Origin: Octopus vulgaris
Taxonomy: Eukaryota
Reading direction: 5' to 3'
Length of the DNA stretch: 64,000 nucleotides
NCBI GenBank assembly: GCA_951406725.2
Contig: OX597818.1
Coordinates: forward strand, 31,434,001-31,498,000
Position numbers and translations under genes: made by a program. Positions 13,694 through 45,970 of this stretch are shown here, in pieces. Within the stretch, counting starts at the first letter, position 1; each line of letters begins with the position of its first letter. Below the pieces are notes generated by a model, which was not told the origin of the DNA, made no database searches, and saw only the letters and a list, made by a program, of their open reading frames with translations.

Positions 13694-14572
13694 AACTGTC
13701 TTCGAAGACACATTATCGTTCAATGCTCGAAATGAGGAGTAGATACACAGCCGACAAATGATGAAGGGTCGTTTTTTATGTCACTTGTTCTGATTTCCAT
13801 TTGTTTCTCTCGTTTGCGTATTGAACTAATTTCTTTTCATATTTCATGTTGTTTACTGTTGGTGACGTCCTGTACCCATACATACATACATACATACATA
13901 CATACATACACACACACACGCCACGCATCCATTTCCAAGTAAGTTTATCTTAATCTTTTTGATGCGACTCTACTCTATACTGTTTTTTTCCTTCATCGTT
14001 TTCATTCTCATCCTTTCTCTAATTCCCTGTTTTCTCCCCTTCGCCGTTTTCTATATCTCTCACTCTATCCCTCTTCCTCCTTTTCTCTCTCTCTCTCTCT
14101 CGTTGCTCACATGTGACCATCGTCTATTTTTCTTATCTTCGCGTGATCATCTTTCTTTTCTTTCATGACTATCCAAAGGACTGGACGTATCCTATCTCTC
14201 TCTTCTATCTTTTCTCTTGTCAAAGAAAATATTTCTCCAGCGTTCGCTATTTTACCCTCGTTCTGGTCAAACGATCCTCCATGTTTGTTTTCGTCCGGTT
14301 TCCTTGTGTGTATCCACTGTTCTGTTTTTGTTCCCAACTTTGATCCTCCATAAATCCCAAATTTTATTTTGGTACTTATGGGAGCAACTGTCTTCGAAGA
14401 CTCACATTGTCGTTCAATACTCGAAATGAGCAGATAGACAGACGACATCTGATGAAGGATCTTTCTTTGTGTTACTTGTCCTGTTTTCCATTTGTTTCTC
14501 TCGCTGTTTGCGTATTGAACTCATTTGTTTTCGTGTTTCATGTTGTTTACTGTTAGTGACGCCCTATACCTA
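13694..14572 (+). mobile_element. Non-coding element with about 185-bp direct terminal repeats (pLTR-like), family F
   Basis: Direct repeats 13694-13880 and 14386-14572 flank a pyrimidine-rich interior; each repeat carries GAAA...(C)TGATGA in reversed order. Confidence 0.7.
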
Positions 14573-15439
14573 TATATGCATGTGTGTGTGTGTGTATGTG
14601 TGTGTGTGTGTATGTGTGTGTGTGTGTGTGTATATATATATTTTTTCACAACCTGTCACGTGGTCGGATCATCGGCAAATAAACCACTAACCTCACTGAG
14701 GTTGTTTGGTGACAAGGTTGAATTATACGGCGCCTTGTGGGAGGAAAAGTAAGAGCGTCAATGTTCATACTGAAACACGGAAAGTACGTGGAAGCCTGTC
14801 GGTAGGATACATGTCCATATACAGTATATATGTGTGTGATTATATATATATGTGTGTGTGTGTGTGTGTGTTCACATACTATTTCTGGTTGTCATTGAGT
14901 CATATTTCTATATTTATATCTCAAATAGATGACCGAGGTGATCCATAACAACAACATCAACAACAATATCAATAACAGCAACACCAAAGGCTGGAACAAT
15001 AACACCTTCCACCGTCACCAATCGCCCCCCCACTCTCATCACCTCTACATCCACCGCCTTCAACGACAACAAACCGGACCAGAGTAATTTGCAAAGAACC
15101 ACGAAGACGTGAGGTTTACCATAATTCTATTCAGAGAAGTTAGAGTGTGGCGTTTCTTAGCTTCAAAGAGACAATTCTTGCCAATATCTAAAATAAATAC
15201 ACACATTCTTCCTTGGAATTGTTCTAGAAATATGTCTTTGCTATGTTTGCTTATTTATTTATTTATTTATTTATTCATTAAATAAATTTCCTTCTCGGAT
15301 CTTCATTCATTCATTATATACTTTGCTTTCGCTTTTTCTTTCCTTTTTTTAGACATTTCTTTTTCTTCGTTTTGATGTCACTTCAGATTTTCTTTGTGTA
15401 TTTTTTTTTTTACATTTCTTTCTATATATTATTCGTTTA

Positions 15440-16260
15440 TTTTTCTTGTCTGTTATTCATTCATGTTTACTTTCCTTCTTTCTCGATTTCTTTCATTCGT
15501 ACTTTGATCCTTTTTGTATTTCTTTCACTTCTTTTTCACTTCTCGCTTTCTTCCTAGTCATTTCACCTCTCTCCTTCTATATATACATTTTCTGTCATAA
15601 TTCTATTCTGTTCTCTTATTCTGCTGGACTTTCAGCAAAAATGTCTTTTATTCATTCTTGGACTTTCTTTTACCGTTTCCTTTCTTTATTTATAGATTCC
15701 CTCCGCTTTATGTTACTTTCTATCAATCTTTCTACCCATTTTTTTTCTTTATCGCTCTTTCTCTCACTTTCATTCATTTTTTCTTTCTTTCTTTCTTTCT
15801 TTCTTTCTTTCTTTCTTTCTTTCTTTCTTTCTTTATCACTCTTTCTCTGTTTCTCTTTCTTTCTTTCTTTTTTCTCTATTTCTTTCTCTGTTTCTTTCAT
15901 TCTCTGTTTCTTTCTTTCTTTCTCTGTTTCTTTCTTTTTCTGTTTCTTTCTTTCTTTCTTTCTTTCTTTCGTTCTTTTTTCTTTCTTTCTTTCTTTCTTT
16001 CTTTCTTTCTTTCTTTCTTTCTTTCTTTCTTTCTTTCTTTCTTTCTTTCTTTCTTTCTTTCTTTCTTTCTTTCTTTCTTTCTTTCTTTCTTTCTTTCTGT
16101 CCTTTCTATCTATCCTTCTTTCTTGCTTTCTTGTTCTTTTTTACTCTATATCCCAAATTACTTTCTTAAATATTTCGTTTCTCTTAGTTTTTCCTTTCAG
16201 CCGTTTTTTAAATAATTTTTCTTCTCTTTTCTTCTTTATTATTTTTCTTCTATATTTTTT
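15440..16260. repeat. Polypyrimidine tract with (CTTT)n
   Basis: Read directly; the pyrimidine bias continues to about 17500. Confidence 0.9.
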
Positions 16261-16529
16261 AAATCTTATTTGGAAATTATCAAACATATTTAATCAATTT
16301 CTCTCTACAAAAGTGCAGGCATGGCTGTGTTGTAAATAAGCTTACTTTGCCACCATGCAATCTTAAGTTCATTCCCACCTGGTTACACCTTTCTCTCTTT
16401 TTGTTTCTCTTCCTTCCCTCTCAACCTTCTCTCTCTCTTTCTCTCTCCCTCCCCCTCTCGCTCTGCCTCTGTCCTTTAGTTTCATTCAGATTCATTCATT
16501 ATTCTTTCTTTCCTTCTTTTGCTTCTATC

Positions 16530-16897
16530 TTATTTCTTTACTACCCACAAAGGGCTAAACATAGAGGTGACAAACAAGGACAGACAACCGGATTAAGTCG
16601 GCCCCAGTGCGTAACTGGTACTTAATTTATCGACCTCGAAAGGATGAAAGGCAAAGTCAACCTCGGCGGAATTTGAACTCAGAACGTAACGACAGACGAA
16701 ATACCTATTTCTTTACTACTCACAAGGGGCTAAACACAGAGGGGACAAACAAGGACAAACAAACGGATGATTAAGTCGATTATATCGACCCAGTGCGTAA
16801 CTGGTACTTATTTAATCGACCCTGAAAGGATGAAAGGCAAAGTCGACCTCGGCGGAATTTGAACTCAGAACGTAACGTGTCTGCCAGCTCGCCGCCT
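16530..16897 (-). mobile_element. Two tandem SINE family B units
   Basis: Two consecutive copies of ...GAAAGGATGAAAGGCAAAGTC(A/G)ACCTCGGCGGAATTTGAACTCAGAACGTAAC. Confidence 0.8.
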
Positions 16898-44124: not shown

Positions 44125-44357
44125 TATTTCTTTACTAACCACAAGGGGCTAAACTCAGAGGGGACAAACAAGGACAGAGAAACGGATTAAGTCGATTACA
44201 TCGACCCCAGTGCGTAACTGGTACTTAATTTATCGAACCCGAAAGGATGAAAGGCAAAGTCGACCTAGGCGGAATTTGAACTCAGAACACAAAGACAGAC
44301 GAAATAACGCTAAGCATTTCGCCCGGCGTGCTAACATTTTTGAAATCTCGCCGCCTT
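44125..44357 (-). mobile_element. SINE family B, tail B1
   Basis: Full-length homology to 5614-5844. Confidence 0.85.
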
Positions 44358-44380
44358 ATACACACACATATAGAGGTATA

Positions 44381-44700
44381 TGTAAACAGTAAAAATAAAT
44401 ACAGACATGGACAAGAACATGAAACATCAAAGAGACGACACAAGAACCACAGGACGGGACATTCGAAGCCCTCAGTCATCAGTCAAGAACCAGATCATCT
44501 TCGCAATTTCGGCTATATATGGGTACAGGAAATAAAAAAAAAACGTACACACAATGAGAAACGAAAACATAAAAACATAAACATAGAAAGCGAAATTTTT
44601 TTTCGAACAGCATAAAGAACATTCCTTTCATCAGTTGTGTCTGTTTCGTTCTACTCTGAGTTTCGAAACTCTCAGAGAGCAATAACGAATGATAACTAAA
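44381..44700 (-). mobile_element. Fused pLTR-like fragments: F-related (44700-44514) plus family G (44513-44381)
   Basis: 44381-44513 is a near-identical reverse complement of 45837-45970; 44514-44700 ends (minus strand) in CCTGTACCCATATA like family F and carries GAAA...CTGATGA. Confidence 0.75.
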
Positions 44701-45061
44701 CATCATAACTGCTCTGCATTGCTGGAATCATCCTGGAATACTCAAATAATTTCTCGTCAGAACAACCATAAATACTACAGCGTTTATACTCTGTGAAAAA
44801 AAAATGTGGCTTCGGAGATTCCCAAACAATGGTACAACGAACTTTCAAAACTACGTAAATCTGTGTTGCTTGACTTGAAAATAAATCGAACATGCAAAAT
44901 ATAACCACACTGCATCATATTGTTTTGCCTCTAGCTAACCTTGCTCTATTTCAAATATATATATATATATATATATATATATATATATATATATATATAT
45001 ATCAGTATATATATGTATACATATATATATCAGTATATATATATATGTATATACATATATA

Positions 45062-45970
45062 AATCAGCCGAAATTGCTAAGATGATCTGGTTCTTGACTG
45101 ATGACTGAGGGCTTCGAATGTCCCGTCCTGTGGTTCTTGTGTCGTCTCTGTGGTGTTTCATGTTCTTGTCCATGTCTGTAATTATTTTTACTGTTTACAT
45201 ATATAATCGGCGGCTACGTATCCACAATTGTCCTTATACGATAAGTATATTTTTTCTCTAGCATTGATACGATTCTTGATCTGTCTCTTTCTCTCTCTCT
45301 CTCTCCTCCCTTATTCCCCTTCCTTTCTTTCCCTCTCCATCCGTCTTTCCCCCCCCTTCTACGTTTCTCTATCTCTCTCACCTCCAGTCCCCTCGGTCTG
45401 TCTCTTTCTTCTCCTCCCTCGTCCACCTTCTCTCTCTTTTCATCTGTCCCTTTCTCCTGTCTTTTGTTCTCACGTGACCGCTAGCCACTGCTGAGCGCTC
45501 TTTTCGTTCCAGCAGTCGCCGAAGCAACACGTATTTGTTCGTCTCCCTGCGGCCATTAGGCACAACTTCATAAGCCAGCCCTAAACTCAACTCGTCCTGT
45601 CGAAAGACCCTTGTCCTACGTCCTGGTTTTGTTTTGTTTTTTATTTTTACCGTTATTGTTTTTACGTTTTTGTATTCTTATTGGTGTCACGTATTCTGTA
45701 TTTTTGTTCGTGTACTTCGTTCGTTTTCCGTCCTCGTGTTGTATACATTCGAAGCTTTCTTCCAGGGGATCTAATGCGCTTGGCTTAGATTTCCCTTGGC
45801 GGGCTGTCCAAATCGGAGCAATCATCAAGATTAATCAGCCGAAATTGCTAAGATGATCTGGTTCTTGACTGATGACTGAGGGCTTCGAATGTCCCGTCCT
45901 GTGGTTCTTGTGTCGTCTCTGTGGTGTTTCATGTTCTTGTCCATGTCTGTAATTATTTTTACTGTTTACA
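45062..45970 (+). mobile_element. Non-coding element with 138-bp direct terminal repeats (family G), flanked by (TA)n
   Basis: Apparently identical repeats at 45062-45199 and 45833-45970; the interior shares GTCGAAAGACCC and CTAAT..CTT.GCTTAGA motifs with the family H PLE 3' UTR. Confidence 0.8.
45817..45880 (+). ncRNA. Candidate non-circularly permuted hammerhead ribozyme
   Basis: AGCAA-TC-A-TCAAGA ... TCAG-CC-GAAA-TTGCT ... TCTTGA-CTGATGA-CTGA: stem III AGCAAT/ATTGCT, stem I TCAAGA/TCTTGA, stem II TCAG/CTGA. Confidence 0.55.

Follow-up and report, generated by a model that had tools for sequence, protein, structure and literature searches.

Octopus repeats with a predicted hammerhead ribozyme wiring in which the catalytic core is split

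A 64,000-nt stretch of the Octopus vulgaris genome (contig OX597818.1, positions 31,434,001 to 31,498,000; here called the window) contains repeats that resemble hammerhead ribozymes with their parts in an unusual order. An earlier note on this DNA described four such motifs and read them as hammerheads in which the cleavage block, the GAAA block and the CUGANGA block follow one another in that order (C-B-A), with a stem II that was short or ambiguous. The question raised by this locus is whether these repeats encode a ribozyme and, if so, how its core is wired. From comparisons of the repeat families across the genome (2.8 Gb in 227 contigs, rich in microsatellites), we consider it probable that they carry a functional hammerhead with a split core, a predicted ribozyme that would sit at the 3′ end of non-coding tandem retroelements.

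All four motifs lie in the window as described, each in a genome-wide family, and the motif is part of the high-copy repeat families G, G′, I, H, F and K. A first look at the genome gave at least 1965 candidates for G, 2922 for F, 1643 for H, 3923 for K and 668 for I, which are lower bounds and not copy numbers; we fetched 30 loci for each of the families G, F and H and 20 for each of K and I. The pairing of stems I and III was as the earlier note had drawn it, with covariation between families, and the order of the three blocks also stood; the note's intact CUGANGA strand, as in type SGC, did not. Stem II is not short or ambiguous, since the partner of the 5–6 nt that precede GAAA sits upstream of the cleavage block, 35–41 nt upstream of G12, in seven of the seven families examined. 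Read 5′ to 3′, the predicted order is stem II 5′ strand, 5′ strand of a fourth helix (P4), stem III 5′ strand-UH-cut-stem I 5′ strand, stem II 3′ strand-GAAA-stem III 3′ strand, P4 3′ strand, and stem I 3′ strand-CUGANGA. The family G copy in the window would be laid out as follows.

45062..45970, plus strand: family G insertion with (TA)n flanks, one 770-nt non-coding unit and a 5′-truncated partial copy that begins 8 nt past the upstream predicted cut
45793..45882, plus strand: possible closing helix directly after A9 (45793-45799 with 45876-45882)
45802..45806, plus strand: predicted stem II 5′ strand, G10.1 first, upstream of the cleavage block, pairing with 45836-45840
45808..45814, plus strand: predicted P4 5′ strand, joining the ends of stems I and II, pairing with 45855-45861 with one mismatch in the subfamily
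45815..45817, plus strand: non-bulged strand of the predicted kink-turn (G3n, G2n, A1n)
45818..45830, plus strand: cleavage block, with stem III 5′ strand, U16.1 and C17, the predicted cut 3′ of 45823, a copy-specific inserted A at 45824, and stem I 5′ strand at 45825-45830
45836..45848, plus strand: stem II 3′ strand, GAAA (G12 = 45841) and stem III 3′ strand
45849..45854, plus strand: bulged strand of the predicted kink-turn (3-nt bulge, G1b, A2b, U3b)
45855..45875, plus strand: P4 3′ strand, stem I 3′ strand (45863-45868) and CUGAUGA (45869-45875), the chain leaving the core after A9

The upstream stem II is paired in 95.3% of cells in 43 copies of G, G′, I and H, with two-sided change at three of its five pairs; for 39 copies of F and K the corresponding values are 94.4% and again three of five. 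Shuffling gave p values of 0.001–0.006 per family. By comparison, alternative partners downstream reach 30.7% and 40.0% pairing, and no pair at all is possible between the bases that follow CUGANGA and the strand preceding GAAA in five of the seven families (G, G′, I, H and the Naiad family introduced below), so that a downstream stem II was rejected as a general solution. A four-helix model of 24 pairs is paired in 89.0% of 1001 cells from the 43 copies, against 19–45% in slid controls, and nine of its pairs are altered on both sides. The core letters CUGANGA, GAAA and UH are kept in 41–43 of the 43 copies per column, with variation at N7; position 17 is C in 40, and the upstream strand begins with a G that pairs with C11.1 in 42. 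Stems I, II and III adjoin the core with G10.1-C11.1 and A15.1-U16.1, which is the structural criterion for a hammerhead. Because the stem II partner lies upstream, the chain would be opened between A9 and G10.1. We conclude that the predicted layout is the non-canonical circle of SGC, CSG and GCS opened inside the core, with the chain entering at G10.1 and leaving after A9.

Several observations temper this conclusion. The pair counts come from related sequences and are not independent events, and as many two-sided changes were reached by 42 of 500 shuffles for G/G′/I/H and by 317 of 500 for F/K; the real support for stem II is its six distinct paired sequences, including a change within H (five cells), and not the cell totals. 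F and K can also form a downstream stem II of four wobble-rich pairs with one extra nucleotide, and G an alternative of four pairs 5 nt further on. Energy folding, which cannot show pseudoknots, returned the nested hairpin of P4 and stem III for I, H and K; for G and F it gave other folds. A closing helix directly after A9 was considered as a general feature and rejected, being strong in G only, with a swap matrix that gave no family-specific match; it is clear by eye in coral, Movir-2 and EuTe Naiad records, and we regard it as optional.

P4 begins directly after the upstream stem II strand, and its partner is formed by the bases just before the stem I 3′ strand. It is paired in 84.9% of cells in the 43 copies and has different sequences in F, K and a Naiad-type genomic copy (L380). 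Since P4 and stem III are nested, they would form a single hairpin. In a standard kink-turn, two helices are separated by a 3-nt bulge and then by G.A and A.G pairs (PMC4382518), and the loop between P4 and stem III has exactly these parts in G, G′, I, H and L380; among the 43 copies, A1n and A2b are present in 43, G1b in 41 and G2n in 40, with variable bulge letters. The 3b.3n pair is U.G in G and I, C.C in H and U.U in L380; according to the rules in PMC4382518, a G at 3n or a C at 3b favours folding in Mg. We conclude that, by its letters, the loop in these families is a standard kink-turn sequence. In the mechanism that we propose, the P4/stem III hairpin would be bent at the kink-turn, and both flanking strands would dock on the apical loop of this hairpin and thereby form stems I and II, giving a normal core with G12 as the base and the 2′-OH of G8 as the acid, without a covalent link from A9 to G10.1. 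Such a brace suggests how stem III reaches the helix formed by stems I and II, a point left open for type SGC, and the kink-turn may be a handle for control by a protein.

We think it somewhat probable that this folding takes place within a single copy. The geometry pulls the other way: a rough model of helix rise and kink angle leaves a gap of 26–28 Å in the monomer between the ends of P4 and stem II, which makes a strand-swapped dimer a serious alternative. Against the proposed mechanism as a whole, P4 is nearly invariant within G, I and H (one of seven pairs changes on both sides), the loop of F and K is GA-rich with additional bases and is not a standard kink-turn, and in the Naiad_EuTe record a 1-nt bulge is all that separates P4 from stem III. 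In an obligate dimer, which is a sub-case of the same explanation and differs in assembly only, the pairings and the chemistry would be unchanged; each copy would form its own P4/stem III hairpin and place its tails on the apical loop of its neighbour. The apparent strain of closing the ring in a monomer, a Naiad_EuTe motif almost without a bend element, the tandem arrangement of the copies, and the proposal that minimal Penelope hammerheads act as dimers (PMC4209133) all speak for this assembly. A kink-turn or a bulge of 3–7 nt is nevertheless kept between P4 and stem III in most families, and type-SGC ribozymes with a similarly short link between these helices cleaved during transcription (PMC10085705). 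We regard the obligate dimer as possible, if the less probable of the two assemblies.

The 5′ junctions of family G insertions show a probable footprint of cleavage at the predicted site. Sixty G loci alone gave too few junctions, with seven of 46 at 0 to +31. A genome-wide search for (AT)4 at most 27 nt ahead of the GAAA block returned 947 matches, the first 100 of which were classified by hand; three were duplicates. Among the resulting 97 loci, 24 insertions start exactly on the predicted cut, 62 start at +1 to +12 (eight at +1 to +4, one of them ambiguous, 12 at +5 to +7 and 42 at +9 to +12), and 11 start upstream, spread over 15 positions. Comparison of five positions on each side gives 32 starts at 0 to +4 versus three at −5 to −1 (p = 2e-7). 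A step remains when microhomology is matched: where the tract is followed by TC at 0 or at −2, the counts are 11 versus 1 (p = 0.003). At 86 of the 97 loci the truncated copy begins on the predicted cut or shortly after it, which points to cleavage in vivo, and it is likely, as judged from these junctions, that the RNA cuts itself at the predicted site. Such a step would be genome-based evidence of in vivo cutting by a Penelope-type ribozyme, which has so far been hard to show.

This footprint has its own counterweights. For the largest class of junctions (+9 to +12), AT microhomology is the best explanation, and short insertions have an advantage in any case. In F, three of 71 matches clearly retain upstream bases, a count that is confounded by native sequence at the cut that mimics (AT)n. 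Microhomology accounts for the peak at +9 and not for the step on the exact bond. A different reading of the same junctions is that the fold is real and no longer cuts, being a hammerhead-derived signal for protein binding or for positioning the reverse transcriptase (RT), with the step produced by microhomology or by a pause of the RT. Kink-turns are common protein-binding sites (PMC4382518), many junctions fall at AT-rich positions, and ribozyme mutants of an anole Penelope element left insertion in vitro unchanged, with no reads ending at the cut (PMC11167929). We consider this reading unlikely: five animal groups retain every catalytic letter; the bond on which the step falls is exactly the predicted one, although it offers less microhomology than −3/−2 does (11 versus 1); and an RT that reaches position 0 would already have copied every 3′ partner strand, which makes a structural pause improbable. 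One G insertion (L204, in the region of G000:C3:33787262) starts exactly on the predicted cut; ahead of it stands a short duplicate of +6 to +24, which suggests template jumping at the 5′ end of the RNA.

The split-core reading also has to be set against known hammerheads. Eckert et al. 2023 (PMC10085705) treat CUGANGA and the adjoining stem II strand as indivisible, which allows six orders; the predicted layout lies outside those six permutations as that text defines them, and breaks the rule behind the list. With SGC and CSG, as described there, it shares a non-canonical cyclic block order, a multiply pseudoknotted core, a short linker between stems I and II and an extra helix that joins these stems. 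It differs in that the CUGANGA/stem II block is split and that both P4 strands link to stem III through a kink-turn or bulge; the terms 'kink' and 'k-turn' were absent from the supplement text of that paper in a term search. The comparison with published permuted models proposed by the earlier note thus holds for the SGC block order and the stem I-II helix, and fails for a stem II directly 3′ of CUGANGA.

Minimal Penelope hammerheads with pseudo long terminal repeats (Cervera and de la Pena 2014, PMC4209133) resemble the octopus motifs in lying near the 3′ end and in the dimer model, and tolerate an unpaired base between A9 and G10.1, so that this junction can bear a break in the continuity of stacking; unlike the octopus motifs, they have canonical order, a local stem II hairpin and almost no stem III. 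In the pistol-like pseudoknot hammerhead PDB 8YDC (PMC11300833), as here, helix II is formed with a long-range upstream strand and a fourth helix is connected to helix I. It differs in that A9 and G10.1 remain connected, that its blocks follow the canonical order, and that its fourth helix, a stem-loop of its own, does not continue into stem III. No opening at A9/G10.1 came up when Perreault et al. 2011 (PMC3088659) was searched by terms, and a literature search gave no account of split-core wiring or of permuted hammerheads in Naiads, the search covering sources other than subscription journals and bioRxiv supplements.

These comparisons bear on whether the repeats are ordinary type-SGC hammerheads with a weak downstream stem II, the upstream strand being a competing regulatory pairing. 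The four downstream pairs of F and K with their one extra base, the four pairs of G at a distance of 5 nt, and the extra base between A9 and G10.1 that is typical of Penelope hammerheads would fit this. It is quite improbable, given the lack of any adjacent downstream pair in G, G′, I, H and the Naiad family, the 31–40% pairing of downstream partners, the G opposite C11.1 at the head of the upstream strand in 42 of 43 copies, and published SGC descriptors (PMC10085705) that require CUGAUGAG or CUGAUGAUG. We conclude that the predicted ribozyme would be hammerhead-like in its working and is not a member of types I-III or of type SGC.

As chance controls we used 80 of 120 metagenome stretches that share the GAAA...CUGANGA pattern, of which 0 had stems I and III or an upstream stem II, and a strict descriptor of the motif, which gave one match in 400 kb of arbitrary genome and none in five shuffles; profile searches of the 400-kb sample found further decayed copies. 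That short motifs in abundant repeats match by chance is very improbable, for although Rfam at E values up to 10 matched no hammerhead family on four family copies or on window positions 45740-45930, which weighs against a hammerhead, and no window copy passes the strict descriptor (all are decayed or truncated), chance does not account for four helices at fixed spacing with different sequences across seven families or for the null results of the controls, and the compensatory changes already contradict it.

Where such a ribozyme comes from is suggested by Naiads, which were reported to lack canonical hammerheads, some being marked HHR_core or HHR_half_core (Craig et al. 2021, PMC8557442). We parsed File S5 of that paper by eye, and not by program, around core words other than CUGAAGA that stand unbroken on a line; for one of these words 60 of its 62 occurrences were covered, and for the others 15 of 30, 15 of 17, 15 of 25 and 15 of 23. 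Split-core wiring can be recognized by eye in at least ten Naiad records: Obim, Ovul, Amil, Aacu, Anas, Plae and EuTe by name, and, by their order in the file, Movir-2 (before Plae), Bfor (first; stem I of two pairs only) and one of Clytia order. These records span molluscs, cnidarians, an acanthocephalan, a crustacean and a ctenophore; their helices are unrelated in sequence, with stems II of 4–6 pairs and P4 helices of 5–16 pairs. Intact type CSG is seen, again by eye, in seven Naiad tails in parts 13–16: Nbra-1, -2 and -3, a further pair in part 13, and a single tail in each of parts 15 and 16. By header or order, at least five of the seven are nematode records, and in the seven tails an upstream strand pairs with an extension of stem II. 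Non-circular hammerheads, split-core and CSG together, thus appear in at least 17 of the 54 Naiad consensus sequences. Tails of spider/ostracod order and of hemichordate order (parts 17-19 and 25-26) have other conserved motifs near CUGACGA or CGAAAC, which may be further wirings or another class of ribozyme.

A Naiad-type half motif has 326 exact matches in the octopus genome. Most of the 11 copies fetched are decayed or truncated; L380 is complete, has the full split-core wiring and by eye resembles the published octopus Naiad 3′ untranslated region (UTR), whose 3′ end shares wiring, size and kink-turn with the repeats described here. The repeats also share with Naiads (TA)n targeting, 5′ truncation and partial tandems (PMC8557442). 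Unlike Naiads, families G, H, I, F and K are non-coding, and their sequences differ from the Naiad motif. No coding element with G, H, I, F or K sequence was found, and descent from Naiads accordingly rests on the shared wiring, size and (TA)n target, on which basis it is likely that the repeats derive from Naiad-clade Penelope-like elements. Taking all parts together, we consider it fairly likely that the split-core, kink-turn-braced form is a seventh natural hammerhead wiring and the missing ribozyme of many Naiads and their retrozymes, that non-circular forms are clade-wide across at least six animal groups, and that the junctions record cleavage in vivo. This would offer an answer to why Naiads appeared to lack the ribozyme of other Penelope-like elements. 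SGC was found only in metatranscriptomes, and CSG is two metagenome sequences (PMC10085705); if the present reading is true, non-circular hammerhead folds are not metagenomic rarities but abundant in animal genomes. The step from few metagenomic records to thousands of animal genomic copies would imply that current descriptors undercount ribozymes.

The earlier note had further proposed that the motifs process Penelope-related, retrozyme-like RNA in cis or between tandem copies, and this part of its reading is supported. G consists of non-coding units of 768–770 nt in head-to-tail arrays with one ribozyme motif per unit. Of the 3′ ends that lie away from locus edges, 44 of 45 are at +148 to +151 from the predicted cut and run into (TA)n, and the 5′ ends vary; this is the end pattern of a Penelope-type insertion. 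Multimeric transcripts would be cut to unit length and perhaps rejoined into circles, and a Penelope-type RT/endonuclease would prime internally about 146 nt past the cut and insert at (TA)n; internal priming has been shown for one Penelope-type enzyme (PMC11167929). Contigs of four presumed-RNA runs contain a 771-nt joint, which fits a tandem or a circle alike and says nothing on the cut. As in animal non-LTR retrozymes (PMC7229834; bioRxiv 10.64898/2026.07.22.740005), the units are head-to-tail and non-coding with one ribozyme each and Penelope-like ties; those retrozymes have type I hammerheads, which G lacks, and were detected with type I descriptors, which are unable to match split-core wiring. 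Two results count against this account. An upstream cut site is read through in ten of the 46 G insertions; some templates must then have been uncut or circular, and cleavage would be incomplete or followed by ligation. No autonomous element with the sequence of G, H, I, F or K was found, and tblastn of 150 loci gave no linked open reading frame (ORF).

Two groups of elements were considered as autonomous partners and rejected. The first is the family of a Penelope-like RT fragment in the window (9342-9890, plus strand), in which a young element with a C-terminal endonuclease has its own canonical minimal hammerhead-like motif. This young related family (L171-L178) has open frames of up to 1151 aa, a C-terminal GIY-YIG domain and (TA)n targeting, and its minimal motif has a CUGAUGC core variant. 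The second comprises the Penelope-like pieces L175, L016 and L030+L369, all of which end in canonical-order motifs. The stretch from L030:2213 to L369 contains another Penelope-like ORF, longer than 720 aa, whose 3′ UTR has short tandem repeats; separate (TA)n insertions, among them an H copy, come after it. A canonical minimal Penelope-type hammerhead also lies in the window at 8050-8099 on the minus strand (motif at 8087); two ribozyme layouts would hence coexist in this genome.

The weak points that the earlier note listed for single motifs are present in the window copies and reflect decay of those copies, not family traits. The extra A of G occurs in one of 43 matches, the window copy itself, and the junction between stems III and I is a single C in 41; position 16.1 of F is U in 26 of 35 matches, the window copy having C. 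The motif at 44628-44680 on the minus strand, taken as a weaker example, proved to be a 5′-truncated fragment of family K, with homology from 44667 and without a cleavage block. The remaining copies in the window are listed below.

44377..44514, minus strand: 5′-truncated family G fragment, starting about 12 nt past the predicted cut
44515..44667, minus strand: 5′-truncated family K fragment, cleavage block absent
29602..29672, plus strand: decayed family H motif within an H element starting near 29171, predicted cut 3′ of 29622
14382..14455, plus strand: decayed family F motif at the 3′ end of an F unit starting near 13918, predicted cut 3′ of 14406
13694..13764, plus strand: decayed, 5′-truncated tandem partner of the F motif, without the upstream stem II strand
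48828..48920, plus strand: fragment of a G-related 3′ tail, only the part downstream of the core

Where the truncated K fragment begins, its 5′ junction has a short inverted repeat (44644-44680, minus strand), and the fragment directly adjoins a G fragment in inverted orientation. Half or more of the words sampled from the G unit are present in public runs of six organisms, which makes the family common to related species. An Rfam scan of the whole window at E values up to 10 gave, among the matches listed (150 of 377), almost exclusively microsatellite matches to microRNA models. Finally, window positions 50377-50495 form a long, near-perfect hairpin with a weak, below-threshold match to MIR8742, possibly a small inverted-repeat element.

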